A program made the translations under genes and the position numbers. The notes beneath the pieces are model-generated. The model was not told where the DNA came from and did not search any database. It was given only the letters and a program-made list of their open reading frames with translations. A DNA stretch of 64,000 bases, taken from IMG/VR virus record IMGVR_UViG_3300013383_000027, positions 1 through 64,000 of that record; one strand, written 5' to 3'. The stretch's first letter is position 1. Every line of letters starts with the position of its first letter. This stretch comes from a virus (Duplodnaviria; Caudoviricetes). Shown one piece after another: positions 1,607 through 58,852 of this stretch.

Positions 1607-1665
1607 TATTTACATAAAAAATAACGAGAAAGATGCCAGGTCTTTAGCCTGGCATAGAGTTCACA
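1607..1665 (-). repeat. Hairpin repeat cassette copy 1 plus GTAAATA late-promoter motif
   Basis: Plus strand: tatttac...acgagaaag ATGCCAGG tctttag CCTGGCAT agagttcac. It lies 12 nt after the TAA of the GT32 gene. Confidence 0.9.
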
Positions 1666-1677
1666 TTTTTGAAGGTC

Positions 1678-2403
1678 TTATCGAAGCAATTTGTCGTATT
1701 TGCAAAATGGAATTGATGACACATTGGACGACGCCCAGCTAAACGAGTTGAAATGGTCGATGTAGAAGTCAGGAGAAAGTGACCATTTCCCATATCTGAG
1801 CGAACAACGCCTAAACTTGATTCTGTTTCCGACAAATCTCAGGTTCGAGTGCCAGTTCGGAGTCGTCTGCAGTAGTTCAACAACATCTTCACGTCTTCTA
1901 AGCGGAAATTCCCAAAAACCAGTTGGTGATGACGGCTCTGAGCCCATGAAATAGTTGTCCGGGAATATATTGTTGGCTTCATAGTGTCTCGTGACGCAGA
2001 ATCTTCCAGATGAAAGAAGTTCATCATCAAACGGCTTCACAGGAAATGTGTCGCAGTCTAGATATATTCCACCATACTCATTCATGAGTTCCATTCGAAC
2101 AATGTCGGAAAGGATTTGGATGAATCTCAGGTTCTTTCCATAAACATTCTTCTGTTTCCAGATATACTCTCCGTAAAAGTCGTTCCTTCCGAGAAGCGAG
2201 TCGATGCATCTGCGTATCTGGACGTCATATCTTGAATTAAAATCGAAATCTGCCGAACCAATTCTTTCGATTTCCCTAACTGAACGGAAAACCCTGACTA
2301 TCTCGAAATCAGGGTTCACCTCCTTGAAGTTTCCTATCGAGAACTCGACATAATCTGGCATCGAGTTCCCAAACCAGACGAAAAACAACCTCTTCGGAAT
2401 CAT
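1678..2403 (-). CDS. Glycosyltransferase, GT32/DXD sugar-binding family
   Basis: MIPKRLFFVWFG start and DIVRMELMNEYGGIYLDCD motif typical of GT32. Confidence 0.85.
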   Translation of the reverse strand: MIPKRLFFVWFGNSMPDYVEFSIGNFKEVNPDFEIVRVFRSVREIERIGSADFDFNSRYDVQIRRCIDSLLGRNDFYGEYIWKQKNVYGKNLRFIQILSDIVRMELMNEYGGIYLDCDTFPVKPFDDELLSSGRFCVTRHYEANNIFPDNYFMGSEPSSPTGFWEFPLRRREDVVELLQTTPNWHSNLRFVGNRIKFRRCSLRYGKWSLSPDFYIDHFNSFSWASSNVSSIPFCKYDKLLR

Positions 2404-3170
2404 TGCGCCTTTGAACGGAACTTCTCGTTGAGTTCCTTCAGAGGTTCTATCAGTTTTCCAAGCGGCGTATCGTGATATTCGTCAGAAAGGGCGTTCACGT
2501 CCTTCGGGAAGCACTTTCCTCCGTATCCGAAGCATCCGTCAGGACCTGGAACCTGCGTATGGGTCTTGTTTATGTAACCGGAAAGGAGGATTCCGTCCCT
2601 AACATTCCCGAAATCGAGACTATCGCGTTCGCATATGTCATTTATCGCGTTGAAATACGTGACCTTGAGCGCCCCGAAGACGTTATGTGCGTACTTTGCA
2701 AGCGAAGCCTCCATACTCGACATGCAAATGTGCTCCTTTCCGGGGAAAATCCGCTCAAGAAGCCCGATGTTGCCAGTAAAAACCATTTTCTGGCGACGAA
2801 AATCCTCAATATAAGTCCTTTCCGTGAGAAATTCCGGCATATGATGGACTTTTTCGTTGATTTCCTTCAGTTTTTTGAGATTTTTTGGAAGAGTCGTCGT
2901 CCGAATCCAGATGTCCTTGCCTTTTGGAATCATTCTTATGATGTCCTCAAGCACGCCGATGTCCTGCTTGCCGTTTTCAAGAGTTGGAACATGAATCTGA
3001 ATAAAAAATGCATCAATTTCCTCGTTTTCGTATACATTTTCATCATAACCCTTTGCCGGATCCGAAATGTGGAGGATGACATTCGGGTTGTTTTCCTCCA
3101 GCCAGACCTTTAGTGCCGTCCCGATGAAACCACATCCAACCAAACCAACATCAATTTTTTCTGATTTCAT
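2400..3170 (-). CDS. UDP-glucose/GDP-mannose dehydrogenase family protein (short form, C-terminal domain absent)
   Basis: VGLVGCGFIG Rossmann motif, PEFLTE, AKYAHNVFGALKVTYFN and GFGYGGKCFPKD catalytic motif. Confidence 0.9.
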   Translation of the reverse strand: MKSEKIDVGLVGCGFIGTALKVWLEENNPNVILHISDPAKGYDENVYENEEIDAFFIQIHVPTLENGKQDIGVLEDIIRMIPKGKDIWIRTTTLPKNLKKLKEINEKVHHMPEFLTERTYIEDFRRQKMVFTGNIGLLERIFPGKEHICMSSMEASLAKYAHNVFGALKVTYFNAINDICERDSLDFGNVRDGILLSGYINKTHTQVPGPDGCFGYGGKCFPKDVNALSDEYHDTPLGKLIEPLKELNEKFRSKAQ

Positions 3171-4080
3171 TGATAACCTCCAATATTTTGTCGTTTTCTG
3201 TAAGATTTAAACAGTTAATGTCATTTTTGCAGTCGTTGTAGCGGACCTGAAGCCCAATGTCGACATAGTTCAGGTCTATCATGACCTCCTTGTCATGAAG
3301 AAAACACTCCGTGACAAGCCTGGGGCTGCAGTCGAATCGCCTTTTAACCGGTGTATAAATGTACTTGTCGAACTTGTCGAAAAGATTCTCAACCGGAGCC
3401 TCCACCTGCTCTATGTCGTCAAGGTTATCATATTCGGGAAGAAGCTTCGGAACGATGAGAATGCTCCTGCTGCACCCCGAATTGCGGTGGTATTCCTGTA
3501 TGACCTCCGGAGTCACCTTTCTACACGCAAACGTAACATAAAACATTCCCGTGTTGTCATATGTCCTGTTTGGCTTCCTGTAGTACACAAACGGAAGCTT
3601 TTTCACATAATCGAATGTCCTGTAGTAATTATTCGGCTTATAGATTCGGTAGTCCTTCAAGTACACCATGTTCCTGTAGATCGGGGACCTTGTGTTGATT
3701 GCCTCGTCCTTCTCTCCGCACATGAATCCTATCAGGTGTTTTGACATCAAGAGAATGCCATACAATTCAAGCTGGTGGATATTCCCGTCACAGAGCAATA
3801 CGACGGTATCCTTCCCGAACACATACACCTTCTCCCGCTTGAACTCATCAGGTGTTATGTAGGTTATGTCATCTACTATATCATCAAACGATATGTTGTA
3901 TTTCGACTCGAATGCAACCCTTATCTTTTCCCTGCTCATTCCCCCGAAGAAGATTATTCCAGCCTTCATGTAATTCCTAAGGAACAGGTAATAGTCAAAA
4001 CACTCGAACAGATGTCCGGTTATCTCGTCGATTGGAGAATATGTCAGAATTATGTCGTATGACGACTCTATCTTTCGCAT
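3151..4080 (-). CDS. Hypothetical protein (309 aa), possibly a glycosyltransferase-like fold
   Basis: Long ORF overlapping both neighbours in the operon. No diagnostic motif recognised. Confidence 0.6.
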   Translation of the reverse strand: MRKIESSYDIILTYSPIDEITGHLFECFDYYLFLRNYMKAGIIFFGGMSREKIRVAFESKYNISFDDIVDDITYITPDEFKREKVYVFGKDTVVLLCDGNIHQLELYGILLMSKHLIGFMCGEKDEAINTRSPIYRNMVYLKDYRIYKPNNYYRTFDYVKKLPFVYYRKPNRTYDNTGMFYVTFACRKVTPEVIQEYHRNSGCSRSILIVPKLLPEYDNLDDIEQVEAPVENLFDKFDKYIYTPVKRRFDCSPRLVTECFLHDKEVMIDLNYVDIGLQVRYNDCKNDINCLNLTENDKILEVINEIRKN

Positions 4081-4991
4081 CAGATTATCGAGTTCCTGTT
4101 GTTCCTATTGCAGTATTCTACGACTCTCATGTTGCAATAGCGGCAGCATTCGCATTTTCCGGAAAGTATGTCGTCGTAATTTCCGTCCCAACCCGTCAGG
4201 TTGTTTTCCTCCATGTGGACATAGCATGGATAGATATCACCAAACGCGTCAATCTGCAAGGAATAATCTTTTATGCTTTGACAATAAATATCTGTCTTCC
4301 CCATTTTTCTGTAGAAATCAACCAGGGAATTTATTTTTTTGTATGTATCATATATATCTTTTGGCGGAAGAAAATCTAAATACTCAAAATTGTTTTTGTA
4401 ATCATCTTGTGGAGATGGATAACAAGTGTCAAGGTATTCAATCTTATGAAATCCAACTAACATGTTTTTAAATTTGTTTGATTTTATATCATCGTTATTG
4501 TATGAAAACCTAATGCATTTCGCACAATCTATATTTCTTATTCTACGTATGCATGATGCATGTCTAAGAATACGTTCTAGATTCGTATTTACCCTGTAAT
4601 GTTCGTGATTTTTCTGGTTGCTTCCACACAATGTAAACCAGATCTCGTCATTATCATCCATTAAATCGCCAAGTCTATTCCAATATTCATCCTCATGCAA
4701 ATCTCCATTCGTGCATATTTTTATCTTTAAACCACGTTTCTTTATCTCATTTACGATCTCATGAAATTCTGGGTGAGTTGTCGGCTCAGATAATTGACCA
4801 ATCAAATAAACTGTCTTCAAATTTGGAAAAGAAAAAATCTGTTTCAGGACTTTTTCTCCGTTTCTATAGAACGGTTTCTTGTATTTTTCACTGAAAGATA
4901 TTTTGTTTCTATAGCAAAGCGGACATTTCGCATTGCATATTGTCGTCAAATCGAGCTCCACCAACTGTACTTCATTGTATTTCAAATGCAT
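4080..4991 (-). CDS. Radical SAM protein with SPASM/twitch-type C-terminus
   Basis: CNAKCPLC (CxxxCxxC), IGQLSEPTTHP, TNG, C-terminal CQS...IDAFGDIYPC...CECCRYC. Confidence 0.9.
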   Translation of the reverse strand: MHLKYNEVQLVELDLTTICNAKCPLCYRNKISFSEKYKKPFYRNGEKVLKQIFSFPNLKTVYLIGQLSEPTTHPEFHEIVNEIKKRGLKIKICTNGDLHEDEYWNRLGDLMDDNDEIWFTLCGSNQKNHEHYRVNTNLERILRHASCIRRIRNIDCAKCIRFSYNNDDIKSNKFKNMLVGFHKIEYLDTCYPSPQDDYKNNFEYLDFLPPKDIYDTYKKINSLVDFYRKMGKTDIYCQSIKDYSLQIDAFGDIYPCYVHMEENNLTGWDGNYDDILSGKCECCRYCNMRVVEYCNRNNRNSII

Positions 4992-5599
4992 TGTACCCTC
5001 TCAAAATCTTTATCGTGTATCATACGTTTTATTGATTCTTTTGTCATTCTATCTGAAAATTTCGATATGATTTCATGTTTCCTTTTTTCAGACAATATCG
5101 GTCCTGTCTGTTCATGGAAGAAAGATGATGGAATCAAATCAAACAAAATATCCCTGTTTATTTCAAGAAAATTTCCAAGACGGCATATATTGTCATCTGT
5201 GACAACAATGACATATCTAACATTATACTCGTCGTGTTTTTCAATTTGTTCTTTTTCAAACAAATCTTGCGAGCAATGATATAATATCTCAAAAGTTTTT
5301 TCACACAATCTAGGATACTTGAAAAACATCCCGTTCGTTTCTATGTATATTTTACATTCCTTTTCTTGCAAGTTCTTAAAATATTCTTCAAGTATATCTT
5401 CCTGTACAAGTCCTGGTTCTCCACCAAATATGGTAACGTTTGATTTTTCTGGAATTGTTTTTAATCTTGAAATTATATTTTCTGCATCACAATTGGCATT
5501 CATGTCCACTTTATTTCTTACTGCACAATAAGGACAATTCCAATTGCATTTTGTTGTTATCAAGATTGAATAATCATTTTCTACATTAAGAATTGGCAT
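4982..5599 (-). CDS. Radical SAM protein (short, 205 aa)
   Basis: CNWNCPYC, FGGEPGL, IETNG. Confidence 0.9.
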   Translation of the reverse strand: MPILNVENDYSILITTKCNWNCPYCAVRNKVDMNANCDAENIISRLKTIPEKSNVTIFGGEPGLVQEDILEEYFKNLQEKECKIYIETNGMFFKYPRLCEKTFEILYHCSQDLFEKEQIEKHDEYNVRYVIVVTDDNICRLGNFLEINRDILFDLIPSSFFHEQTGPILSEKRKHEIISKFSDRMTKESIKRMIHDKDFERVQCI

Positions 5600-6374
5600 T
5601 TAAAAATCTCTTTGAATTTTTTAAGTCTAACATGAAGTCAGAAATGGTCTTGTGTTTATCCTCCAGATAAAAATCAGAAAGATGCAACTTTATGTTTGTT
5701 TCGCTCATTCTGTCTTTTCTTTCTTTGTAGCGTTCTATCTTTCTGCATAGACCAATATCGTGAAAATGAAAACATTTTATTTTATTTGTTTGTATACATT
5801 TGCCACATATTTCTGGTTTTGATTCATAACATCCGGGAAGATAATTCGTCTCTTTTACTAGATTTGGATTAAAAACCAACATTTTTTGTTTCTTTCCAAA
5901 TCTATCATATTTTTTATCTATATCATTGTAGTATTTCCATTCATCTATATAAAAAGTATCAACTATATTGTGCATCAATCTACCATCATATTTTGGAAAA
6001 ACATATGAAATCAAATTTAGGAATTCTGGTGTTATTGTCGCGATGTTTTCATTCTTCATTTCTCTTAAAATCAGTTCTGGTTCATCTATAAACAAACATT
6101 CGTCCATGTCTGAAACTATAACAAAATCCGTTTTACCAACAACATTTTTCCAACACATGTTTTTTATTCTCAAGAGTTCCATGTCATCGAGAATACCATT
6201 TGTTTTCCACACCTTGACAGTAACGAAAGGTATTTTTTTGAGAAATTCATATGAACCATCGTTTGATTCGTTGTCATAAACCGTAACATGCGCATTCATA
6301 TGCTTCCAATAATCGACAACAAACGGAAGTATTTGGATTTCATTATAGCAAAACGTGAACCATTCAACGATCAT
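5586..6374 (-). CDS. Glycosyltransferase (GT2/GT92-like)
   Basis: TFCYNEIQILPF, VYDNESNDGS and FVIVSDMDE (DXD) motifs. Confidence 0.8.
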   Translation of the reverse strand: MIVEWFTFCYNEIQILPFVVDYWKHMNAHVTVYDNESNDGSYEFLKKIPFVTVKVWKTNGILDDMELLRIKNMCWKNVVGKTDFVIVSDMDECLFIDEPELILREMKNENIATITPEFLNLISYVFPKYDGRLMHNIVDTFYIDEWKYYNDIDKKYDRFGKKQKMLVFNPNLVKETNYLPGCYESKPEICGKCIQTNKIKCFHFHDIGLCRKIERYKERKDRMSETNIKLHLSDFYLEDKHKTISDFMLDLKNSKRFLNANS

Positions 6375-7257
6375 GAATTTCTCCGTTTCCTATTGTTACC
6401 CCGAAATTTCCATGTCTACAAAATGGACATTTGCAGACAACAGTTGTGTATTTTTCAACATCAAATCCATCTTTTATGTTATATAAGGGTTTGTCTCCAT
6501 AGTAAAATTCATTTTGACATGGATATACATTCCCATTTACGTGAATATACAATGTATCAACACCGGCGGTACATTCATTTCCGGAATAATCATCCATATA
6601 CACAGCCGAAAAATCATCAAAGATAGATTTATATATGTCCTTGTGCCCAATATGCTTTTTTACGTCAACAAAACCATTTTTAATGAGAATTGAAGAAAAA
6701 TTACGAATATCATCATCTGAATATTGAAATACACCACTTGGTTTATATAAAAGCCACGGAACAATAACGTTTTTATACTTTTCTTTCAAAGTATAAATTA
6801 CATTTCCCCATCTATCTGAATTTCCAAACTCATACATCATGGCTATTTCAATTATGTTGGCTTGGTTTATTCCAGTTAGACCGTTCAAGAATGATACGAA
6901 TGTTGTGTCGTTTGTTTCAGTGTGCCACGATACTGAAAACTTCACATTTTTTGAAAGCAATTCAGCATAATCACATCTAGCGACAGAAAGATTTGTATAC
7001 ATATCCACACTACATACATTTTTTATATTGAATGATCTTGTTACAAGTTCTGAAACCTTTGGATGTAGTGATGGTTCTCCACCTATTAAAGACAATTTTA
7101 TATTTCGTCCGGTTTTCTCTGAAATTTGCGCAAGGAAATTCAAGAGAATGTCAATATCAATAAAATTCCCACTTCTTGGCTGTCTGTTGTAGCAATACGA
7201 ACATTTAAAATTACACGCGTCAGAAATATAAACAAGAATTGTTAACTCAGTATTCAA
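6364..7257 (-). CDS. Radical SAM/twitch protein, paralog of 8320-9279
   Basis: CNFKCSYC, IGGEPSLHP, CTAGVDTLYIHVNGNVYPC...CKCPFC. Confidence 0.9.
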   Translation of the reverse strand: MNTELTILVYISDACNFKCSYCYNRQPRSGNFIDIDILLNFLAQISEKTGRNIKLSLIGGEPSLHPKVSELVTRSFNIKNVCSVDMYTNLSVARCDYAELLSKNVKFSVSWHTETNDTTFVSFLNGLTGINQANIIEIAMMYEFGNSDRWGNVIYTLKEKYKNVIVPWLLYKPSGVFQYSDDDIRNFSSILIKNGFVDVKKHIGHKDIYKSIFDDFSAVYMDDYSGNECTAGVDTLYIHVNGNVYPCQNEFYYGDKPLYNIKDGFDVEKYTTVVCKCPFCRHGNFGVTIGNGEIHDR

Positions 7258-8323
7258 TATATTCGTCCTCTCTTATGAGATCAAGTGTCGAACAATGTAT
7301 ACCGCCAGCAAATATCTCACCATTATCCAATTCAACCTCAATGATATCGAATCCATTCTGTTCAAGTGCCTTTTTAACACCATATGCTTTTTTGTTCACA
7401 AGTACGGTATGCTCATCCAGACTTAAAACATTTATATCCATTCCACGACTTGATGCAAGACGTATATCAATATCTGTCATTCCTCTAACATCAAGTTGTT
7501 CTGTTAGATCCTCTGGGATAATGAAGTTCCATTTTTTGAATTTTTCTGGCAACATGTCTCTTACACAAGCGAATTTAGGATTCAACAGGAATGTCCCAGG
7601 TTTAAGACACACAAGTTCACCATCAATATGCGAATCTGCGCATTTGACAACGTGGAATTTCGATTCTGGGAACAACGACTTGACCCATTTGTATCCAAGA
7701 TATTGATTTTGTGTGGCTACATTTACAATAACATCCTTTCCTATTGTCAAAAAATTTGGAGCATCAATCGACATCTCATATCTCGCATTCGCGTTCGTGA
7801 AATCTCTGTCTTCCTTCCAGTCGACCAAATCGTACGTTTCCTTAATCAAATGGGTGTTCGGAGCCTTTATCCACTTACCGCCATTCCCGTTATCAAACGC
7901 CCTCTGGAATATTCTGTACATCTGCAGGTTCTCAAAAACCCTGTTCCTCAGACATATCGGTGTCTCCACAATCGTGTCGTTGTAGACCAGTGTGAGATCC
8001 CTGACATTGTTGGCCGAACTCATCTCGGTGTCATATGTCGGGGTCTTTATCTTGTGAACTCCAATTACCCTGTCCGGCCGGAAAACGGTTACACCAAGAC
8101 TTTCAAGGACACCTGCAAGCGCGTCAAGCTGTTCCACCCTTCTCTGCAATATATTCTCGGTTATTGAATACAACTCATGTCGGCTGTTGTAGAGTCCCTC
8201 GGGGAGAAGGTTCTCCCTGAAGAAATTCCTGAACGTAAAATCGATCAGACGACGGCTTATTTCAAGCTCACGCCCGACAATAACCTCCCGCAACTTCCCA
8301 AAAGTCGTATTACAGTGAATCAT
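7247..8323 (-). CDS. Amidinotransferase (glycine / inosamine-phosphate amidinotransferase family)
   Basis: FGKLREVIVGR, NVRDLTLVYNDTIVETP, DAPNFLTIGKD, SHIDGELV, C-terminal GGIHCSTLDL with the catalytic Cys. Confidence 0.9.
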   Translation of the reverse strand: MIHCNTTFGKLREVIVGRELEISRRLIDFTFRNFFRENLLPEGLYNSRHELYSITENILQRRVEQLDALAGVLESLGVTVFRPDRVIGVHKIKTPTYDTEMSSANNVRDLTLVYNDTIVETPICLRNRVFENLQMYRIFQRAFDNGNGGKWIKAPNTHLIKETYDLVDWKEDRDFTNANARYEMSIDAPNFLTIGKDVIVNVATQNQYLGYKWVKSLFPESKFHVVKCADSHIDGELVCLKPGTFLLNPKFACVRDMLPEKFKKWNFIIPEDLTEQLDVRGMTDIDIRLASSRGMDINVLSLDEHTVLVNKKAYGVKKALEQNGFDIIEVELDNGEIFAGGIHCSTLDLIREDEYIEY

Positions 8324-11681: not shown

Positions 11682-11712
11682 ACTCCATAGTATACCGTTT
11701 TCGAGAAAAAAA

Positions 11713-14719: not shown

Positions 14720-15814
14720 TCAGCTTATAAAATATTTACGGTTGGACAGGGCAAGAAAAAGAGCCTTCGTCACCTTTCCGAAGTGCTTCATGAACCTGCA
14801 TTTTGAGAGATCCTTTCCGACTGCCGTGTTCCACCTGTCCATCCCGTCATTCCTCCCAAGACATTTCACATGACAAGTGACGCAGTATGCCGCACCACAG
14901 CCAATACAACCATCAATCGGTCCTGACGAGTCGAGTTGGTTGTTCTCGTACACCTTCACGAGGTCATCGACATCTTCTATCGTGCCAAGAACGAACCTTT
15001 CGTTGTTTTCAGCATACGGTCCACCATGACAGCAGTATATCATGCCGTCAGTGTGGAGGTGTAGGTTGTTGTCCATCCTGCATCTTGCTCGTCCATCCCT
15101 CTGGAACCACCCCATCAAAAACCTTCCATGTTCCATGTAGAAGCGACATTCCCTCTTCGCAAGTTCAAATGTAGCCTTTTTCCACTCGTCAAACATTGAG
15201 TCATCACTCATTGTTGTGTCGAGTGTCGGAACATACTGTACGAAATCACCAAACTCTTCATACAATTTCCTATAGGATTCCCACATTTCCGGAAGTTTGG
15301 GAATCATGTCATACGTCAGCGTAGGCTTGAAGTTTATCTCGATGCCGTTCTCAAGAAGGAGCCTGGCGGTCTCGAATATGAGCGAACTGTTGTCTCCGCG
15401 CTTCTCCGTGTGCTGCGGTTCGCCGTCGTATGAGAGCTGTATGTGAAGACGACCGCCCTTCAGGCTGTCGATATAGTCCGAATTCACAAGCCTCCTGAAG
15501 TTCTCGACGAGCGTTCCGTTCGTGTAGCAATGGTAATTGACGAAATCATACTTGTAAGTTTCCCTGATGAGATGGTCGAGAAACTGGAAATTCAGGAATG
15601 GTTCTCCTCCCCAGAAGGTAAGTTCAAGGGAATGCAGCTTTTCCGGATTCCAGTTCTCGCAGAGATTCCTGATGACACGGATTTCATCGCCCTCATTCCT
15701 CGGATTCTTCACACAGATCTTGTCAAGACCCTCCATGCAGTACGAGCAGTGGCAGTTGCATCCGTCCGTAACCGTCACTTCAAGTGAAATTGACTGTTTC
15801 CTGTCAAATTTCAC
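14720..15814 (-). CDS. Radical SAM/SPASM peptide-maturase-like enzyme
   Basis: CNCHCSYC, FWGGEPFL, YTNGT, QLSYDG, SPASM Cys set RCRMD...YCCHG...CIGCGAAYCVTCHVKC...KC. Confidence 0.9.
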   Translation of the reverse strand: MKFDRKQSISLEVTVTDGCNCHCSYCMEGLDKICVKNPRNEGDEIRVIRNLCENWNPEKLHSLELTFWGGEPFLNFQFLDHLIRETYKYDFVNYHCYTNGTLVENFRRLVNSDYIDSLKGGRLHIQLSYDGEPQHTEKRGDNSSLIFETARLLLENGIEINFKPTLTYDMIPKLPEMWESYRKLYEEFGDFVQYVPTLDTTMSDDSMFDEWKKATFELAKRECRFYMEHGRFLMGWFQRDGRARCRMDNNLHLHTDGMIYCCHGGPYAENNERFVLGTIEDVDDLVKVYENNQLDSSGPIDGCIGCGAAYCVTCHVKCLGRNDGMDRWNTAVGKDLSKCRFMKHFGKVTKALFLALSNRKYFIS

Positions 15815-17157: not shown

Positions 17158-19004
17158 GGTTTGGCTGGAGCCGACACTTCCTCGAACACATTCTTCTAGT
17201 CCACCCACTTGAAGGTGTAGCCGTCCGAGGTTATCACCGTGCAGTCGTGACCTATGTTTCCGAAGGTGAACGGCTTGACGTCAGACACGTCGGATGTCGT
17301 TTTGGAGACATTGGTCGTTTTGTTGGATGTCATAGAATTGTATCCACAGTCCCCATCCACGTATTTCAACATTGCCATCTCTTTCTCGAGTGCATCGTTG
17401 CCACCAAACCCAGTTTGAAGCCTGTAAACCATCTTTGCCTTATAGAAATCGTCAACACCACACTCGAAGTTCCTTTTTGAAATGTAATTCTGCATCTTGG
17501 AATAATCCCCTCCGATCATGTCGGGGTTTATGATCCACCTTGTCCCCCCTTTATACGTATAGACTCTCTCATCTTTATAGTATCTTCCTGTAGCAGTAGT
17601 TCCTGGAGAATAACCGATTTCAAATATCTTTTTATCATATTTCTACTTATCTGATATCTTGGCTCCAGAACTTTCTGAATAGGAGACATAGCTACCATAT
17701 ACCGTTCCGTCACTCGAATCATTCTCCGGATCCTTGTAGTTCTCTATCGTTTTTTTCTTGATCGCTGTGCTATTCTTACCCTTAGCGGCATATTGAGCGG
17801 TTGACATTCCGTAGTACATCAGGTTGACATGATGCCACTCGCCATGTCCTCCTCCATATATTACAATAAGCTTCTGCTGACTGAGAAACTCCTGGAACCT
17901 GTCGGTATTCAGGACATTCTTCTTATAGGTGGCACACATTGAGCATCCGTTCCAACACGCAATGACCATGATCGGAAGGTTGTTCTTCATTGCGGTTCCG
18001 AACACCTCCATCACCTGTGCGTCTTTGCTGACTTCATAGATCTTTCCGAACTCGAGACCGTCTGTCGAGAAAACGGCTTGTGTCGGATTCGATGAACTGA
18101 GCGCTGAATACTTCAAAAGCTCATCTCTCGACACACCATTCAACGTAATCCGCGAGAGGGACGATCCGTACAGAGAGTATTCGTCAAATGCATTTAGCGT
18201 AGTGACCCCCCTTGGAAATGTGATTTCGCTCAGTGAATTGCACCCGAAGAACGCCCTGTCCTGTATTCCCATGAACGCGTTTCCATTAGACAATTCCGAG
18301 TCGCTCGGTTCGGCAACCTTCACGTCATTGAGATTCGCGCATCCATTGAACATGTCTGGTGAGAACAGCTTGAACCTGGATGGAAACTATATCGAACTTA
18401 ACCCGGTGCAGTTCTGGAACGCCTTCTCCCCGACACACGAACCCAGGTTTCTCTCAAACCGGACAGAACTCAGGTTCGTGCAGTTCCTGAACATTCCGTT
18501 CCCAAGCTCGTTTGAATTCACGAAGCCAACGTCCGTAAGTCTTTCACATTCCAGAAATATGTCCTCGCCAAGGTAGGGTCCAACCTACGGCTCAACCGAA
18601 CGACACTCGTCAAGTAGTTCCTCCGTAGCCCCATCTCCAGACAGTGAGATGTATGCCATCTCCAATTCGCTCCTGGCAAAAGCCCGATCGTCAATCGAGA
18701 ACATGATGTGCGTTCCGTCGAGAAGGTCGTTTTTTTTGCCGGAACACCCGTAGAACGACTGCTTGCCGATATGCCGAACGTTTTCAGCATCCTTTAGCGT
18801 TATCGCCGTGTCGTTGGTTGCAAAACATTTGTCACCTATCCATCTAACGTTCTTCCCGAACCTGACTTCGCGTATTTTATCTATGGAACCATTTCCCATT
18901 ATGGATATTGACGAAACAGTGTCTGAGACGCTTAGGTCGACAAGTTTCTTCCCGTCCTGCACCTGGTATTCAAGATTCTCCGTAATCGCGTAGCTCTTCT
19001 GCAT
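17154..19004 (-). CDS. BspA-type leucine-rich-repeat protein with a thioredoxin-like segment (616 aa); 4 in-frame TAG
   Basis: Track ORFs 18585-19004, 17643-18353 and 17196-17519 join in frame. LRR_5 repeats: IGKQSFYGC, VGEKAFQNCTGLSSI*FP, IQDRAFFGCNSLSEITFP. Thioredoxin-like segment IACWNGCSMC. Confidence 0.75.
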
Positions 19005-36666: not shown

Positions 36667-36725
36667 TATTTACGAAAAATTTAACAAGAAAGATGCCAGG
36701 TCTTCAGCACGACACAGAGTTCACA
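36667..36725 (-). repeat. Hairpin repeat cassette copy 2 (degenerate arm) plus GTAAATA
   Basis: tatttac...aagaaag ATGCCAGG tcttcag CACGACAC agagttcac. Confidence 0.8.
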
Positions 36726-36734: not shown

Positions 36735-38792
36735 TCAGTCATTGACTTTGCTAACTTTGTTTGTAGCCTGGTTTTCTATGGTAGCCTTGTTTGACATGGC
36801 ATCGTTCTGAAACTTCAATATAAGTGCAATGTTGTTTTTGTTCTCCAGTTCAAGCAGCATAGATTTGGCTGCAGCATCCTCGGAAAAGGACCCTCCAAGA
36901 TCTTTCAACGAACTCACAAATCCATTTCCAAACGAACTATACATATCATCCTTGGCTTTCTCGATTTCCTGTGACGATTTCTCGCGTTCCGCAAGTATTT
37001 TTTCGTTATTCTTCGCCGTCTCAAGATCTTTCTTCTCTTTTTCAGCTTTGATTTTTTCTGTCATTGCTTTTTTTATCTGTTCTGGGCACTGAACTGTTGG
37101 AAATGAAGTAAACAACTGGCTTATCTAACCACCATAACCCATAGATGCAACCTACATCTGCGCCGCCATTTCTTTGAGTTTCTTCTTCCCAGCCTCATAC
37201 ATCACCTATGGCATTGTCTTCATCAACGAAAATATCTTTGGCATTAACTCGATTGCCGTATCTAAAAGATTTAATGGATACGGAAGTGGTAATTCTCCGC
37301 CGGTTACCGCTGACCAAAGATTTTTTACAATAGAAATCAATGCATTAATCATGTTGAATATAAGCTAAACGAGCAAAGTTGGCAACATCATCATAAGAAG
37401 ATTGATGGTCTGCATCATTGACGAAAGGGACTATTTCCATGTATCTGGAATCTAAGCCTTATCCTTCCACTTTTCTATCAACTTCTTCTAGTCGTCCGTC
37501 AACGTAGAAGTATCTGAACTTTTACTTGACATCATCTTTAATATATCTGATATTGGCGATGCAACCGGAGGAAGTGGCAACTTTAATTTCGTAACGCCAT
37601 CAAACACAGGATCCATCATTGATTGCAATTTTTGAAGTACTGAGTCCACATCACCCTTTATATCCAACGACGGAATATTACGCAAAAAACCAGTTACAAC
37701 AAGAAACAATATGCTTTCAAGTTTATCAAAATCCTTCATTAAATCTTGTGGCAGTTTGGCAAATTTCTTGGCGGCATCTTCAAGCATCTGGAAATTCTTC
37801 AACTTATCAAGTGAAGATACATCCATTTCTTGCACTTCAATTTGTTTTTTGCAAGCTTTTAAGACTTTCTCATTCATCTTCTCAGCCATCGAAGCTGCCT
37901 TATTAAGCGATTTTTCATATGATGAACATATCTATCTAAAAGCAGCCTAAACATTTTGAAGGAATTGTTTTTGAATCCCCTGTATCTGCTTCTGCATGGA
38001 TTTCATCTACGCCTGGTTTTTTGCAACCTCATCCAATGTTCCTCCGGATTTGTTAAGGTTGTTAATCTTCGCCGCTATCTCACATGCTTCTGTATCAACA
38101 TCCTTGAATTCATCTGAACTTTCTATTGTCGCAAACAACGACTCTGTCACAGCCCCGGTAGAATACACTATCGGAGGTGTTGATGTATCTGATGTAGCCT
38201 TCCCATATTCTGTTATATGAACAGAACTCCATTTAATCAACACACCACCGTCATTACTACCTTCAAGCTGATAATTGTAATACGGATATTTTTTATCGGC
38301 ATATTCATTTACACGTTCAATAAACTTGGAAATATCCTAGTTTATCTGTTTCTTTGTGTCTCCAAATTTTTTCTATAACTCCTCCAGTGTAATATTCGAA
38401 CTGTCTCCACCTGGGGTCAGCTGTTTAACAAGATAATCATATATTGTAACCTAAAGCTTTGTCGTTATATCGGCGTTTTTCTCGACTTCTGCTACAACAT
38501 CTTTTGCCGTAAGCATTTCAAGTTGTTTTTGTAGGTACTTTTTCTGTGCTTCAAGATTTCCGTCATAGTTCTTGGAACATGCGTCTGTTGCCATTTTGGT
38601 CAACATGTCAGCAAGAACCTTTTTGTTCTCTTCTGTTTCAAGGATAGGACCACCGCCGGACTTCACCATTGTGTTTATCCGGTTTTGCATCTGTTCGATA
38701 TTCTTCTGTGTCGCCCCATACTTCCGTCTAAAATCGTTCTTGGCTTTTTCTTTGCTGAGATTTGCTTTTACCTATGCTTTCGTAAGTGCCAT
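36735..38792 (-). CDS. Alpha-helical hypothetical protein (685 aa) between gp5-like and gp6-like genes; 14 in-frame TAG
   Basis: The frame is open from ATG 38792 (GGAGG RBS) to TGA 36735 except for 14 TAG. It contains hydrophobic amphipathic stretches. Confidence 0.75.
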
Positions 38793-38857
38793 TGTTTCCT
38801 CCAAAAATATTTTATTTCGCTTACCAAAAAAGGGACCATTTTCAGTAGTTGCCAGCT

Positions 38858-39625
38858 TCAAACACAGTGCAGACCATTAGGAAGCGATACTGCCGTTATA
38901 TAACCATCCGGAACATCCATTGTTACTGTATCACTGATTATTGTTACACCATTTTGACCGGTCTTACTTATACTGCTCTTTTTTGACGTGTTATCCTTTG
39001 TGTTGAATGTTATATATGGCGATGAAAACTTCATCTGTTTTGATGCATCGACCGTAAATGTCTCCGTCTCAAGCATGATGCTCTTCGTACCATATATCTA
39101 GACACAACCATTCTCGTCCATTTCAATCTACGCAATCCTCTCTTCATTTGTCTTTGTGTCTTTACAATGGTTCTTTATGGTGACATGCCCAAGCTCCGAA
39201 ATCATAACCGTACTGTTTCCGCATGTTATTTTGTGTACATATGCACCACCACTTGGACCGACCAGGTCGTCTTTTGTCGGGAGTTTTTGTTCACATGTGG
39301 CAAACTATCCGGCCGAATTTGTAGTACCTGGGCACGCCGCAAAGTACACCGGGAAATTTGGATCTCCATTCTGAAAAAAACACCAGACAACAGAACCTTC
39401 GTTTGGATACGAAAACATACCATTTCCGTCATTGCATCCACCGAATAAAGGAGAAGCTTGCTCACAATCTGGAAGATTTGTCGCCTTGTCCAAGTTATTG
39501 AATTCTTCGGGATATACGCCAGGAATAAATACTTTTAAAAATCCCTTTCCGTTTTTAGATCTGGCAAGAACCTTTCCACGATAAAACCCAATGAGCTTAT
39601 TCCCCGTCGTTGTGTTCTGAGTCAT
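38858..39625 (-). CDS. Baseplate spike, gp5/VgrG-like N-terminal OB-fold protein without a lysozyme domain (255 aa); 3 in-frame TAG
   Basis: FYRGKVL...LKVFIPGV...PNEGSVVWCFFQNGDPNFPVYF, followed by short beta-repeat-like segments. Confidence 0.85.
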
Positions 39626-39637: not shown

Positions 39638-40213
39638 TCACTGATGCGTATTCACCACAAGTGTCTTCCTGAACCTTATATCTTCAAGACCCCGTATCTG
39701 ATAGTATATCTCAAGCCGTACCGTGTTCTCCTCGGTGTCATCCGTGCTCGACGCATTTGAAACCCGTACATTGATGACCCTTGGCTCGCACCTCTGTATC
39801 GAGTTCCTGATGTCGGCCACTATCCTCTCTTCCGTCAGATCCGTTATACCCTCATACAGGAGGGTGTAAATTCCGGTCCCGAACTCCGGATCAAGTACCC
39901 TTTCTCCCGGGATCCACGAGAAAATGTTGTCTATTGCGTTCTGCACAGCCCTTACGTTAACCGACTTGTCTATTGCATAGTTGGACTTGGACAGACCATC
40001 CCTGTACCACGCCGTCTGGACCTGAAGCGAGTTGTACCGCTCGTCTGTCAGCTCGCTCCCATCGTAGTCTCCAAGCACGTGAAACGGGTATGCTTCTTGT
40101 TTCGACACTTTCCTTGACGGCTTCGACGTCATATTAAGATCTGTGTAGACCTCACTGTTCTGCCGTTCGAGAAATGTCTTCTTCCTACCAAGCTGAATTA
40201 CTCTGTTTGACAT
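39638..40213 (-). CDS. Baseplate wedge protein, T4 gp25-like
   Basis: AVQNAIDNIFSWIPGERVLDPEFGTGIYTLLYE. Confidence 0.9.
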   Translation of the reverse strand: MSNRVIQLGRKKTFLERQNSEVYTDLNMTSKPSRKVSKQEAYPFHVLGDYDGSELTDERYNSLQVQTAWYRDGLSKSNYAIDKSVNVRAVQNAIDNIFSWIPGERVLDPEFGTGIYTLLYEGITDLTEERIVADIRNSIQRCEPRVINVRVSNASSTDDTEENTVRLEIYYQIRGLEDIRFRKTLVVNTHQ

Positions 40214-40225
40214 GACTTACCGGAA

Positions 40226-40261
40226 TATTTACGGAAAATGCCCAGGTTAACCTGGGCATTT
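40226..40261 (-). terminator. Palindromic terminator (variant of the repeat stem) fused to a GTAAATA late-promoter motif
   Basis: AAATGCCCAGG ttaa CCTGGGCATTT with T-runs on both strands. GTAAATA at 40226-40232. Confidence 0.75.
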
Positions 40262-41799: not shown

Positions 41800-41857
41800 T
41801 ATTTACAGAAAACTTGACGAGAAAGATGCCAGGTCTTTAGCCTGGCATAGAGTTCAC
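41800..41857 (-). repeat. Hairpin repeat cassette copy 3 plus GTAAATA
   Basis: tatttacagaaaacttgacgagaaag ATGCCAGG tctttag CCTGGCAT agagttcac. Confidence 0.9.
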
Positions 41858-44552: not shown

Positions 44553-44558
44553 CCGACA

Positions 44559-44618
44559 TATTTACATAAAATTTGACGAGAAAGATGCCAGGTCTTCAGC
44601 CTGGCATATGAATCGTCA
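44559..44618 (-). repeat. Hairpin repeat cassette copy 4 plus GTAAATA
   Basis: tatttacataaaatttgacgagaaag ATGCCAGG tcttcag CCTGGCAT atgaatcgtca. Confidence 0.9.
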
Positions 44619-44741
44619 TTCTTTCACATTGTTTTTTTGTAAATAATTTCGTACCGACGGAACATCGGGAAATTACGCTTGTGGAGTTCAAGACCTCTGT
44701 CAACGATGCTTGTAGTGTTGTTGATAAGTCTGAACGATGAA

Positions 44742-44781
44742 ACAAGAAGATGCCATGTTTTTAGCATGGCATAGAGTTCAC
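44742..44781 (-). repeat. Hairpin repeat cassette copy 5 (compensatory stem variant, no promoter motif)
   Basis: acaagaag ATGCCATG tttttag CATGGCAT agagttcac. Confidence 0.9.
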
Positions 44782-47808: not shown

Positions 47809-47873
47809 TCGACACCTCTCTCAGACACCAAAACTTTACAATATGAAAATTGATTCCACTTTTACGATGAAAA

Positions 47874-47931
47874 TATTTACAGAGAACTTGACGAGAAAGA
47901 TGCCAGGTCTTCAGCCTGGCATAGAGCTCAC
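47874..47931 (-). repeat. Hairpin repeat cassette copy 6 plus GTAAATA
   Basis: tatttacagagaacttgacgagaaag ATGCCAGG tcttcag CCTGGCAT agagctcac. Confidence 0.9.
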
Positions 47932-48048
47932 TTGAAGCTTGCAATCTCTGAAGACGATTGCCATTCAGCCTTATGGCAGCACCGCCGAGCCCCCGGTGAA
48001 AATCTTAACCAGTGGCGAAACAACATCGCCTCTATTTCGTAAATGTCC

Positions 48049-53411: not shown

Positions 53412-53674
53412 CTCGGAGACGTGTTCTTGTACCTCATGTAATTTATAATGTCACCGATGGCGTAAAGCGACTTCACCATGTCGTTCCCATCATTCTTTCG
53501 CATGTTCTGCTCCTCCTCGTTGTCGGTGTTGAGCTTCTGGATGAACGACTGAAGATCCAACATTGTCATGTACTTCTCATCTCCATGTATCATAACCCTG
53601 TATCTCCTGAAGATTCCCATTTCGGCTTCGGCGACATATTGATACATCTTCCGATCAATTGCGCCGAGAATCAA
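53408..53674 (-). CDS. Tail/baseplate assembly chaperone C-terminal ORF (T4 gp51-like), in the -1 frame of the upstream gene
   Basis: Begins inside a T8 run overlapping the upstream TGA. Only a TTG start is available. Confidence 0.6.
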   Translation of the reverse strand: MILGAIDRKMYQYVAEAEMGIFRRYRVMIHGDEKYMTMLDLQSFIQKLNTDNEEEQNMRKNDGNDMVKSLYAIGDIINYMRYKNTSPR

Positions 53675-54552
53675 AAAAAATCAATAAGGTTCCCCATTCC
53701 CTCCTTGGTCTCGTATCCACAGTGTCCGCACTTCTCGTACTGGAACACAGAGTTGATCTTCTCGATGAATTCCTTCGCGATGTGCTTGAGAACACCATTC
53801 TCCTCGTCGAACATGATGTTCTGCGGAAAATACGACAAAAGCGTTTCAACGTCATCATATGGCATTATCGAGAGATCTGCCAACTTATGATCGTTTGGAT
53901 TCTTCTTGTTGATGAGTTCGACCTTCTTGATGAAGAGGTTAATGTACTCGATGTTCCCGAGGTCGTCAAGAGCCTCCTGCTCCTTCTTCGAGACGTTCCT
54001 GTAGTTCTTCATGTAGCCCTTGTAGAAATTCGAAACGGCGCGGACGGAAGGGTAGTTGAGCGTGAAGCTGTACACCCTGTTCCTGTCTTCGGTTGTGAAC
54101 TTAACATCCTGTAGGTCGAACGCGTTGAATTTCGCTAGAATCTTGTCGAAGTCGAGGATGTATGAGTTCTCACATCCGCATTCGGGGCACTTGTACGTTA
54201 TCTTGTCGTGGAAGTAATTCGATGAATAGATTTCCATGAGAATGCGAATCCTGTCGAACTCCGTGAGCCTGTAGACGCTGAAACCATCCTCTGCGCAGAC
54301 CTTGTTGATGAGGGCGCACTGCGTGTCGTAAACGATGTCCTTGCGGTTCTCGTTCTGGATCATCGTCTTCGAGAGAGACTTCTGGTCTGTGACACTGACC
54401 TCGTTGAACATGACCTCGCGCTTGAGCGAGTTCACGTATACCGGTATCTGGGAAGACGTGAGCTCCTGCTTGAACACATTCAGGATTTCGCTGTTGTTTT
54501 TCTCTGGTGTGGTGTTTTCAGCAACCACGGACTCTTTTACTTCATTTGACAT
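53671..54552 (-). CDS. Baseplate hub/tail assembly chaperone, T4 gp26-like
   Basis: FNEVSVTDQKSL, FDRIRILMEIYSSNY, zinc-ribbon TYKCPECG and C-terminal CGHCG. Confidence 0.75.
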   Translation of the reverse strand: MSNEVKESVVAENTTPEKNNSEILNVFKQELTSSQIPVYVNSLKREVMFNEVSVTDQKSLSKTMIQNENRKDIVYDTQCALINKVCAEDGFSVYRLTEFDRIRILMEIYSSNYFHDKITYKCPECGCENSYILDFDKILAKFNAFDLQDVKFTTEDRNRVYSFTLNYPSVRAVSNFYKGYMKNYRNVSKKEQEALDDLGNIEYINLFIKKVELINKKNPNDHKLADLSIMPYDDVETLLSYFPQNIMFDEENGVLKHIAKEFIEKINSVFQYEKCGHCGYETKEGMGNLIDFF

Positions 54553-54574
54553 GTTAACTCCTACCTTACAGAAA

Positions 54575-54633
54575 TATTTACAAAAAATTTGACGAAAAAG
54601 ATGCCATGTTTTCAGTCTGACACATAAATCGTC
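54575..54633 (-). repeat. Hairpin repeat cassette copy 7 (degenerate) plus GTAAATA
   Basis: tatttacaaaaaatttgacgaaaaag ATGCCATG ttttcag TCTGACAC ataaatcgtca. Confidence 0.75.
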
Positions 54634-54646
54634 AATACCATTTTTG

Positions 54647-54670
54647 GTGAACTCTATGCATAGAATTCAC
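54647..54670. repeat. 24-bp palindrome made of two head-to-head cassette arms
   Basis: gtgaactctatgcatagaattcac, with one mismatch. Confidence 0.75.
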
Positions 54671-54698
54671 AGTTCTGAAGAGTGTTCACACGAAAAAA

Positions 54699-56167: not shown

Positions 56168-56184
56168 GACATCTACCTCTGAAA

Positions 56185-56242
56185 TATTTACAAAAAATTT
56201 GACAAGGAAGATGCCATGTCTTTAGCATGGCATAGAGTTCAC
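56185..56242 (-). repeat. Hairpin repeat cassette copy 8 (compensatory stem variant) plus GTAAATA
   Basis: tatttacaaaaaatttgacaaggaag ATGCCATG tctttag CATGGCAT agagttcac. Confidence 0.9.
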
Positions 56243-56271
56243 AAAAACCGTGCGGTCTCCCACACGGTTTT
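56243..56271 (-). terminator. Intrinsic terminator after the tail tube gene
   Basis: AAAACCGTG...CACGGTTTTT hairpin with flanking A/T runs. Confidence 0.7.
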
Positions 56272-56347
56272 ATAACTCCTATGCTGAGAAAAGGCAACCA
56301 TCTCCAGAGGCTACCAGCTTCAACGCACCTCATCAATTGGAAATCAA

Positions 56348-56923
56348 TCAGACCTGGTTCGAGAATGCACCCGCGTTTACCGAACCCTTCTCAATCTGCC
56401 AGTACGTGCTCCTGAAGGAAACCGTGAAGGTGGAAACACTGGCTTCTGTGTTCGACACCGTCAATGCTCCGACATCTGCGATCCTGACACCGACGAGCTT
56501 GTACGATTCGGAGATTGTCTCCATGTCGTTGTCTAGTAGGTTGATTCGCATTATGGAGCCTGTGTTGAGACGCCTGTCCCCTTTGAGAATCGAGCCACCT
56601 TCGATATCCGGATCCCATGTCTTCGACTGCCACGCGAGAAACGCCCTGCGGATTTCTCCGTTTGCGTCGGCGTTGACAGTCATTGAGTGTTCGTTCGTCA
56701 TTTGCTGGTTTGTCGGAATCGGGAATGCATACCCCTTGAACGATACGTCGGCATAGCTTGTTGTTCTGGACGGGATCTCGAATCCTTGTCCATACATCGT
56801 TATGTCCTTCAAAACCGCATCGACATCCGAATATCCGGACGTGATGTAAAGCTCGAACATGTTTGTCGTGCGGATCTGGTTCGTCGTCAGCTTGTTGAGA
56901 AATTCGTTTAGGGCTCGTGCCAT
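56348..56923 (-). CDS. Tail tube protein, T4 gp19-like
   Basis: RTTNMFEL, FEIPSRTTSYADVSFKG, HSMTVNADANGEIRRAFLAWQ, VSTFTVSF. Downstream of the sheath gene. Confidence 0.9.
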   Translation of the reverse strand: MARALNEFLNKLTTNQIRTTNMFELYITSGYSDVDAVLKDITMYGQGFEIPSRTTSYADVSFKGYAFPIPTNQQMTNEHSMTVNADANGEIRRAFLAWQSKTWDPDIEGGSILKGDRRLNTGSIMRINLLDNDMETISESYKLVGVRIADVGALTVSNTEASVSTFTVSFRSTYWQIEKGSVNAGAFSNQV

Positions 56924-56948
56924 TTTATGTCTCCTGTTTCTATAATAT

Positions 56949-56955
56949 TATTTAC
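56949..56955 (-). promoter_or_regulatory. GTAAATA late-promoter motif for the tail tube gene
   Basis: 25 nt upstream of the ATG, with a GGAG RBS in between. Confidence 0.65.
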
Positions 56956-57006
56956 AAAAAATGACGATTGTGGTTCGCCCCATGAATTTACAAAGAAAAA
57001 ACACAG

Positions 57007-57034
57007 TTGACGATTTAAACAAAAACCGTATAAT
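57007..57034 (+). promoter_or_regulatory. Sigma70-type promoter TTGACG-N16-TATAAT for the homing endonuclease
   Basis: ttgacg atttaaacaaaaaccg tataat, 31 nt before the ATG. Confidence 0.75.
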
Positions 57035-57065
57035 ACTTACTACTTAGCTTTATCTGGAAATTCCT

Positions 57066-58796
57066 ATGACATACAAAGAAATATCGCTCTTTCTCGAAAA
57101 CTTGAATATCGGAAAATCGAAACGTGAAATTTTCCTGAAAAACCACTGTCCAGATATTTTAAATGAAATTTTAAAAGCAACGAAGTTTCTCGATGAGACG
57201 AACAAGGACGACCGTGAGATAACTTTTGCTGAACGCGTTTTCTGCATCCTGCATAATATTCACGAACGTCCAAAATGCATACAATGTGGTTCTTATGTGA
57301 TGTTTGCTAAAGATCGTGGTTGCTATCGTGAATTTTGTTCTCAAACATGTTCGAGAAAAAGCGAACAGACAAAGACGAAACGAAAAACCACAACATTGGA
57401 ACGCTATGGAAGTGAAACATTCCACAACATCGAAAAAGCAAAGAAAACAAGATTTGAACACAACAAAGGCAAATGGCATTCAGATGATTTCTCTAAAAAA
57501 GTGAAAGAGACGAAATTTGGGAAATATGGAGATGAAAACTGGAGCAATCCTGAAAAAACATCAAAGACAAATATGGGAAAATATGGCGTAGTCTATCCAT
57601 TCCAATCAAAAGAAATAAGAAGCCGTGCCGTTGAGTCTTTTATGAAAAAACACAACGGAATATCTTGTGTGTTCAAACTTCCGTCTGTTATGAAAAAAAC
57701 ACACAAAGGAATAAGAAAAAGATCATACGGTTTCATTTTGGAAGATAAGAACATAACTCCGAATTTCACAGAAGAAGAGTACGTGAACGGTTCTTCCGAA
57801 ACCGAATTTGAATTCATATGCAGCAAATGTGGTTCGAAATTCAAATCGACATGGGAGCGTGGATTTTGCAAAAGATGTCCTACATGTTATCCTGAACCGT
57901 TTGGTATGTCGAATGCAGAATGTGAACTTTATGAATTCCTGAAAAACAACTGTGGTTCTAAATGGTCTGTTTTTCATCGCACAGATATAAACAAAAACAT
58001 TTTAAATAAACGTGAAATAGATATTGTCCTGAAAAGTGTTTCAGGACAATATCTATGTATAGAATATGATGGACTTTTCTATCATTCGGAAGAAAATGGA
58101 AAACACACAAACTATCACTTGTCCAAAACAGAAGAGTGTGAAAAATCTGGCATTCAGTTAATCCATATTTTCGAGAATGAATGGATTTCAAAACAAAAAA
58201 TAGTCGAATCGAGATTATTAAACCTACTCGGAATATACGAAAACACGGTGTATGCAAGAAAGTGTTCAATAAAAACAGTAGATAAAGATACAAAAGACAG
58301 ATTTCTTGATCAAAATCACATCCAGGGAAAATGTTCATCTAGTTTTAACTGTGGTTTATATTTTGAAAATGATTTAATTTCATTAATGACTTTTGGAAAA
58401 TCTCGCTTTTCAAAAAAATACGAATGGGAATTGATAAGATTCTGCAACAAAACGGGTTATCATGTTCCTGGTTCGGCCGGAAAACTGCTAAAATTCTTTG
58501 AAAAGACAATGAAGCCAAAATCAATTGTCTCTTATGCGGACAGAAGATGGTCTGTTGGAAAACTATACTATTCACTTGGATTCAATCTAGACCACACATC
58601 AAACCCAAACTACTGGTATTTCAAGCCAAATAAACCATATGTAATCTACAACCGAATTGGGTTTCAGAAGCACAAATTACCGAAACTGCTGAAAGAATAC
58701 GACCCAAAACTTTCCGAAACAAAAAACATGGAAAACAACGGATACATGAGACTGTGGGATTGTGGAAATCTGGTATTTGTGAAGACTTGTACTTAA
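57066..58796 (+). mobile_element. Free-standing Hef-like homing endonuclease gene between sheath and tube genes
   Basis: Repeated TLERYG/KFGKYG/NMGKYG DNA-binding motifs, a zinc ribbon, nuclease core EIDIVL...IEYDGLFYHS...LIHIFENEW and C-terminal SYADRRWS...LGF domain. AT-rich, on the opposite strand, no TAG. Confidence 0.85.
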
Positions 58797-58852
58797 GTGA
58801 ACTCTATGCCAGGCTAAAGACCTGGCATCTTTCTCGTCAAGTTTTCTGTAAA
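58797..58852 (+). repeat. Hairpin repeat cassette copy 9, inverted, abutting the endonuclease stop codon
   Basis: TAA-GTGAACTCT ATGCCAGG ctaaaga CCTGGCAT ctttctcgtcaagttttctgtaaa. Confidence 0.9.

Follow-up and report, generated by a model that had tools for sequence, protein, structure and literature searches.

A short hairpin unit occurs in nine copies in the 64,000 nucleotides analysed here (hereafter the window), which make up the initial 64 kb of one 83,007-bp phage record of IMG/VR (IMGVR_UViG_3300013383_000027, below G000), rated 32% complete. This cassette is most probably a non-autonomous miniature derivative of an insertion sequence (IS) of the IS200/IS605 family with IS608-like ends, a reading to which we give a probability of about 0.85. 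Sequence comparison shows where the unit begins and ends, that it is precisely present or absent 3' of TTTAC without duplication, that full-length parents exist in related phages, and that guide and target covary. The unit would thus be selfish DNA at promoters and not a regulatory cassette built by the phage.

Architecture and copies of the unit

Six phage records were compared, namely G000 (the contig of the window) and G001, G002, G003, G004 and G005, of which G002 is complete. G001 is collinear with G000 and about 77% identical to it (about 75–85% nucleotide identity). No near relatives of G000 were found among GenBank phages. The remainder of the G000 contig past the window is designated L062 (L062:10108 is contig position 74108). 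In G000, which encodes UvsY, a UvsW-like helicase, GroEL and a gp47-like nuclease, genes lie mostly on the - strand and give long frames only if TAG is read as an amino acid; genes were called with TAG=Q.

On the + strand, the unit follows a TTTAC and consists of 19 nt ending in AAAG, an 8-bp hairpin with the loop TCTTYAG, and 9 nt ending in TCAC. It is 51 nt long and gene-less, and it equals the left-end 19 nt of the parent, a single hairpin and the 9-nt tail of the right end. Both cleavage sites, a guide and one hairpin (not two separate end hairpins) are kept within these 51 nt, which have no coding capacity. The stem contains 4–5 G-C pairs and folds as DNA at -8.3 to -8.8 kcal/mol. The strand taken as sense by a first-pass annotation of the window, made from the letters alone, is the bottom strand of the transposon. 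The window holds the following elements:

1614-1664, + strand: 51-nt single-hairpin mini-element; TTTAC target 1609-1613, hairpin 1633-1655.
36674-36724, + strand: 51-nt mini-element with a degenerate 3' arm, hairpin 36693-36715; upstream of the baseplate-wedge gene 34726-36645.
41807-41857, + strand: 51-nt mini-element, hairpin 41826-41848; identical to the copy 58797-58847 (51/51) and missing in G001.
44566-44781, + strand: 216-nt two-hairpin deletion derivative; left-end hairpin 44585-44607, right-end hairpin 44750-44772, tail to 44781.
47881-47931, + strand: 51-nt mini-element, hairpin 47900-47922.
54582-54670, + strand: decayed derivative with a left end, a degenerate hairpin (54601-54623) and a palindromic right-tail remnant; upstream of the baseplate-hub-like gene 53671-54552.
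56192-56242, + strand: 51-nt mini-element between a canonical terminator and a promoter motif, hairpin 56211-56233; used in the comparison with G001.
58797-58847, - strand: 51-nt mini-element, inverted, hairpin 58806-58828; target TTTAC 58848-58852 (- strand).

The first-pass annotation had listed nine copies, and pattern scans recovered every one of them where it had been placed. The core pattern scanned (8-nt arm, 7-nt loop, 8-nt arm, at most 2 mismatches) was matched by 7 window copies, against 0.01 expected from the shuffles that served as chance baseline. A looser scan was needed for copies 36693 and 54601, in which the 3' arms are degenerate. Copy 44750 is devoid of the promoter-side flank, and copies 44585 and 54601 have a different box on the other side. 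Genome-wide counting, which the same annotation had recommended, added seven copies or remnants beyond the window in the same contig (64620-64940, 65849, 70803, 74108, 82574 and 82683). An exact-word scan of IMG/VR also found the unit in about 10 other phage contigs, with different upper-stem pairs. The interior of 44566-44781 contains a GTAAATA motif at 44639 and a remnant of the tnpB 3' end and omegaRNA (RNA fold z-score of -4.06). The derivative at contig 64620-64940 is built like it, with a faint Zn-ribbon remnant.

Occupied and empty sites in a related phage

At seven sites, a unit is present in G000 and missing from G001 (36674, 41807, the 216-nt unit 44566, 56192, 70784, 74089 and 82555). 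The empty G001 sites read (A)TATTTAC or TATTTTAC, directly followed by the flank, with zero duplicated bases in all seven. They also retain the promoter motif (ATATTTAC/GTAAATAT on the two strands): the counterpart of 36674 is ATATTTAC followed by an unrelated flank, and in the counterpart of 56192 the ATATTTAC directly abuts the same canonical terminator as in G000. Thus, GTAAATA, which had been taken for a part of the repeated unit, stays at sites that are without the unit. A search for empty sites at the population level gave two junction-spanning matches among the fetched loci, one of them being a G001 site already used.

At two other sites, both phages hold an element next to the same TTTAC. 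The 1614 site carries 51 nt in G000 and, at the orthologous position of G001, a two-ended derivative of about 280 nt. Similarly, the 54582 site holds a decayed element of 89 nt in G000 vs a full IS of 1.9 kb, with tnpA and tnpB, in G001. These two orthologous sites document decay in place.

The copy number ranges from 1 in a complete 252-kb genome to about 15 in the 83-kb fragment of G000, and the same family is present in a phage record with 24.6% GC. Three copies of G001 (2157, 9511 and 149775) share one imperfect stem, which differs from both hairpins of the full-length copy of G001.

A role of the units in module shuffling, also suggested by the first-pass annotation, did not emerge from this comparison: the two phages differ in gene content in seven instances, three of which touch an element and four of which lie apart from any. 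Moreover, the elements lie in intergenic spacers, where any module boundary must fall anyway.

Full-length parents in related phages

In G001, G002 and G003, the hairpin and its 9-nt TCAC tail are found at the 3' end of a tnpB gene of 430–445 aa. The tnpB frame stops within the unit in G002 and G003, and 8 nt ahead of it in G001. The OrfB_IS605 and TNB domains were detected above cut-off in the tnpB genes of these relatives. In the full-length copy of G001, tnpB adjoins a Y1_Tnp gene with an HIH motif, and the search for a HUH/TnpA-like transposase proposed with the initial description was therefore successful; this tnpA carries an in-frame TGA and a frameshift, which disrupt it. The two genes are divergent, and the phage's own motif GTAAATA lies in front of tnpB. 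At the opposite end of the G001 element, TTTAC is followed by 19 nt that finish with AAAG, then by a near-identical hairpin and AT. In this copy and in 44566-44781, the left and right hairpins share the same orientation, and there are no terminal inverted repeats. A remnant of tnpA was found in G002, and none in G000, G003, G004 and G005. Regarding the RNA part, no Rfam match reached the gathering score, the one match being at chance level (E=0.07).

The existence of these parents bears on the resemblance of the unit to REP elements, with which it shares a short single hairpin, many intergenic copies and, in theory, recognition by a Y1 HUH enzyme. If it were a REP-like element mobilised by a RAYT, i.e. 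a TnpA-like protein encoded by a single-copy gene outside any IS, it would not be an IS remnant at all. We consider this extremely improbable. Searches with PF01797 for a stand-alone RAYT or Y1 gene gave only IS-borne tnpA, a weak negative for G000, which is 32% complete, and one that for the complete G002 yielded only the remnant. In addition, the unit has as its flanks the two ends (left and right) of an IS with tnpB, and the insertion beside TTAC with an AAAG guide is that of IS608.

Two side observations concern tnpB outside these parents. A 16.8-kb contig (L138) binned to a Sphaerochaetaceae metagenome-assembled genome carries a full-length copy at 5833-7248, in which a tnpB frame interrupted by a single stop lies between a left end and a right end; the copy either points to the host or belongs to a phage contig that was binned wrongly. 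At L062:15717-15887 (contig 79717-79887), a remnant of a second, unrelated TnpB family shows a C-terminal DRDxNAAxNI-type motif, followed by a GC-rich structured stretch ending in TCAA. A stretch of 213 nt at this place is absent from G001, with a clean junction.

Covariation in the stem and between guide and target

We assembled 96 non-redundant copies from the six phage records and from IMG/VR and metagenome loci. In this set, 93.4% of the stem cells are paired, and none of 500 shuffles matched the observed pairing or covariation score. Stem pairs 6–8 covary, pair 7 being UA in 26 copies, CG in 19, GC in 19 and AU in 10, while the loop and the lower stem are conserved. A change of both arms together (AGG/CCT to ATG/CAT), from which the first-pass annotation had argued for selection on the structure, is real, and this larger set agrees with that argument. 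It also agrees on the unpaired parts, since flanks and loop are conserved in the 96 copies.

Two copies, G000 74108 (L062:10108-10130) and G004 56622, have the loop flipped relative to the flanks. This suggests an inversion across the perfect 8-nt arms, which would be the best explanation.

The guide and the target vary together in the same set. AAAG occurs with TTAC in a ratio of 38:0 and ATAG with ATAC in a ratio of 20:1, the latter defining a second subfamily with the guide ATAG and a flank that ends in ATAC instead of TTAC. In 38 of the 45 copies with an AAAG guide, TTAC lies 17–20 nt from the hairpin foot. With the right-end guide GAAG, 21 of 23 copies have no such target motif 19 nt away, as expected because this position is internal to the element.

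IS608 of Helicobacter pylori inserts 3' of TTAC with no gain or loss of bases, its TTAC being located 19 nt 5' of the foot of the left hairpin, and its guides lie directly 5' of the hairpins (AAAG on the left, GAAT on the right). On the right, cleavage takes place at TCAA, located about 10 nt 3' of the foot, and the two bases 3' of each hairpin (AT left, AG right) form triplets (PMC3201880, PMC5934647). In this IS, the second guide base is the partner of T-4 and the first that of the -3 base (PMC3201880). The family described here shares the TTAC target without duplication, the 19-nt spacing, the AAAG left guide and the presence of tnpA (Y1) and tnpB. AT is also found directly 3' of the left-type hairpins and AG directly 3' of the right-type hairpins. 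The right-end site and guide are TCAC/GAAG here vs TCAA/GAAT in IS608, and they fit the same pairing rule. Moreover, the change between the two subfamilies falls at the pair formed by T-4 and the second guide base, i.e. at the IS608 pairing position. We infer that a 4-nt guide pairs with the cleavage or target site in this family. Unlike IS608, these elements reside in phage genomes, have perfect 8-bp stems with a conserved 7-nt loop instead of imperfect palindromes, and end in a 9-nt right tail. They further differ by the divergent tnpA and tnpB (in G001), by a natural ATAG/ATAC subfamily and by the GTAAATA before tnpB (in G001).

The putative promoter motif as insertion target

The motif GTAAATA, with 20 occurrences on the - strand and two on the + strand, precedes the genes for the tail sheath, the sheath stabiliser, a baseplate wedge protein and a hub-like protein. 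'T4-like late promoter' is a reasonable label for this putative promoter motif. TTTAC is found 126 times in the contig, ATATTTAC only 14 times and always on the + strand; 10 of these 14 are followed by a left end, and only 2–3 units are located at other TTTAC-like sites. The putative promoter motif GTAAATAT is a pre-existing target, outside the repeated unit, because empty sites keep the motif, guide and target covary, and the geometry is that of IS608. A promoter as such is not required, because the TTTAC used by copy 58797 stems from the T-run of a bidirectional terminator and not from a promoter. The simplest account of the promoter bias is that intragenic TTTAC insertions are selected against and that most intergenic TTTAC are promoter cores. 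GTAAATAT survives an insertion unchanged, and it is only the sequence upstream that is replaced. T4-type late promoters need no upstream element. Many copies of the second subfamily are located at ATTATAC, the complement of GTATAAT, and the same targeting logic may apply there to a different promoter type.

Unoccupied motifs of the window include the following:

14732-14739, + strand: unoccupied ATATTTAC (GTAAATAT on the - strand).
40225-40232: unoccupied ATATTTAC.
61604-61611: unoccupied ATATTTAC, upstream of the tail sheath gene.

The unoccupied motifs 14733, 17151, 28627 and 40226 have CC before GTAAATA, and ten ATATTTAC motifs of G001 are followed by GG. The native promoter consensus may thus be longer, CCGTAAATAT, and insertion would displace its CC. 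At 40190-40225, another hairpin with a related arm (9-bp stem, 4-nt loop, T-run) abuts an unoccupied promoter motif and resembles an ordinary terminator.

The first-pass annotation had read the unit as a mobile punctuation element, i.e. a terminator, RNA-processing site or protein-binding hairpin that travels with a late promoter and delimits modules. Its position after stop codons, noted there for four copies at 0–14 nt, holds with TAG=Q (gaps of 0 nt at 58797, 7 at 41857, 10 at 36724 and 14 at 44781). A regulatory cassette would also account for the conserved loop and flanks, for the units flagged by a lenient terminator scan and for the high occupancy of the promoter motifs. However, the empty G001 sites keep the promoter motif, and the terminator next to 56211 abuts that motif there. 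Boundaries and geometry are of the IS608 type, full-length tnpA/tnpB parents exist, and one copy lies at a TTTAC that is not a promoter. Mobile DNA is therefore the part of this proposal that stands; a terminator-plus-promoter cassette built by the phage is highly unlikely.

Two other promoter types were considered and rejected. A sigma-70 or extracytoplasmic function (ECF) promoter spanning the hairpin is at odds with the spacing, and no consistent -10 follows TCGTCA. N4 promoter hairpins have much shorter loops, and the 8-bp stem and 7-nt loop found here do not match an N4-type hairpin promoter.

We also considered an adaptation of the IS family to phage late transcription, in which the association with promoters would go beyond toleration. 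The TTTAC target, and hence the transposon-associated motif (TAM) of TnpB, is the complement of the putative late-promoter core. In addition, the G000 contig contains two orphan omegaRNA remnants, one of which lies behind GTAAATA as does tnpB in G001. Such an adaptation is unlikely in our view. If it existed, TnpB and omegaRNA could act late as an RNA-guided homing nuclease against co-infecting genomes without the insertion; alternatively, promoter-proximal units could have been co-opted, e.g. by a TldR-like repressor or as an insulator between terminator and promoter.

Proposed origin and mobility

In the miniature-IS reading, the parent follows the TTTAC target with a left end made of 19 nt (the last four being the guide AAAG), a hairpin and AT. 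Next come tnpA and tnpB, the latter overlapped at its 3' end by an omegaRNA, and the right end closes the element with the guide GAAG, a near-identical hairpin and a 9-nt tail ending in TCAC. The 51-nt unit would be the expected leftover of a deletion between these two near-identical, directly repeated hairpins. A Y1 (HUH) TnpA provided in trans would recognise the hairpin as single-stranded DNA, the 4-nt guide would find TTAC, and the minis themselves would still move. Since no intact transposase was found, we only infer this mobility in trans. Copies would accumulate at GTAAATAT because TTTAC complements the core of this motif and because an insertion just upstream would be tolerated if the promoter belongs to the T4 late type.

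Several observations weigh against this account. No intact tnpA was found in the six phage records (Pfam), in all fetched loci (tblastn) or in an IMG/VR scan, and no tnpB above cut-off was found in G000, a contig that is only 32% complete. A single-hairpin unit alone cannot form the usual left-right synapse, and the guide AAAG of the mini mismatches the right cleavage site TCAC at one position. The mismatches of the stems (29 G.T vs 35 A.C) do not indicate the folding strand. The occupancy of 10 of the 14 promoter motifs could also be explained by a benefit to the phage. Finally, the hairpin with CTTTCTCGTC passes a lenient terminator scan, by the 5-of-8 T rule only. Canonical terminators adjoin the units at 56211, 58806 and 74108, and the units may act as weak terminators or have another acquired role.

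The same deletion could instead have occurred independently at each site, every 51-nt unit being formed in situ from a left and a right hairpin like a solo long terminal repeat, with minis that are immobile. These solo-hairpin scars would be consistent with the near-identical direct repeats of the two hairpins, with the one-position mismatch between the mini's guide and its own right cleavage site, and with the G001 sites orthologous to 1614 and 54582, which hold the derivative of about 280 nt and the full IS. However, the minis 41807 and 58797 are identical at unrelated sites of G000, and the imperfect stem common to G001 2157, 9511 and 149775 is unlike both hairpins of the full-length copy. 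Both observations favour movement over scars, an origin that we regard as possible but doubtful for the units as a whole.

Relation to known elements and significance

IS200/IS605 elements, TnpB with its omegaRNA and gene-less PATEs are already known. PATEs (palindrome-associated transposable elements) are gene-less IS200/IS605 derivatives, found for example in Haloquadratum and Geobacillus stearothermophilus, some of which retain omegaRNA (PMC3119063, PMC10055086). The elements described here resemble them in having no protein-coding genes, in keeping the IS ends and in that they would need mobilisation in trans, and 44566-44781 fits this description. In contrast, the common 51-nt form has one hairpin shared by both ends, is far shorter and is concentrated at one promoter motif.

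Dispersed intergenic stem-loops by promoters are also a feature that our units share with the promoter/stem-loop (PeSL) cassettes of T4-like genomes. In those cassettes (Arbiol, Comeau and Krisch 2010), the promoter reportedly lies within the repeated unit and shuffling is said to occur by recombination. In our case, empty sites retain the promoter motif, and the unit represents a transposon end specific for TTAC.

In our literature search, we came across no earlier description of a single-hairpin 51-nt derivative, natural guide/target subfamilies or an IS targeting a phage late-promoter core, and nothing on IS605-type minis at phage promoters. What looked like regulatory punctuation in a recoded T4-like jumbo phage can be re-annotated as transposon ends with exact boundaries. 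The two subfamilies, which differ at one guide base and the target base paired with it, would be a natural counterpart of the laboratory retargeting of IS608. With a promoter core as target, most putative late promoters of the fragment carry an insertion, which bears on the tolerance of phages to mobile DNA and on late transcription. The 51-nt single-hairpin form is a very small unit and a plausible route or intermediate from IS to REP-like repeats. The orphan omegaRNA remnants, one of them behind GTAAATA, suggest RNA-guided homing between phages as a testable idea.

Other observations on the G000 genome

The HNH-like open reading frame (ORF) at 57066-58796 (+ strand, 576 aa) lies opposite to the late genes, behind a near-consensus sigma-70 promoter (57007-57034); at this position, G001 has different content of similar length. 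We considered this ORF as a candidate IscB or TnpB and rejected it: Pfam gave DUF7487 and weak nuclease domains, PHROGs gave a homing endonuclease, and the adjacent unit is wrongly oriented for a guide RNA.

When TAG is read through, many short frames merge into long ones among the - strand genes, between 28860 and 53411 and elsewhere, for example 28860-34715 (1951 aa, 12 TAG) and 36735-38861 (708 aa, 14 TAG). No in-frame TAG was found in the + strand HNH-like ORF or in the tnpB genes of the relatives. Recoding of this stop codon in the late genes of G000 looks real from these frames. No tRNAs were found.

An island of low G+C content is located at 5455-7260 (4001-8000 generally), with 33.8% vs about 46%, and G001 lacks about 1.8 kb of it. 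Another G000-specific stretch, of 1.7 kb (17181-18890), starts right by a GTAAATA motif (17151). The first 75–80 nt of the contig (window 1-80) are the reverse complement of an AT-rich stretch at L062:18780-18860, about 150–230 nt from the other end; this could be a genuine inverted repeat or an artefact of assembly. Finally, about 360 nt at L062:1221-1584 (contig 65221-65584) are 96% identical to the otherwise unrelated L031 and L185, and 90% identical to L166; this segment is probably another mobile piece.

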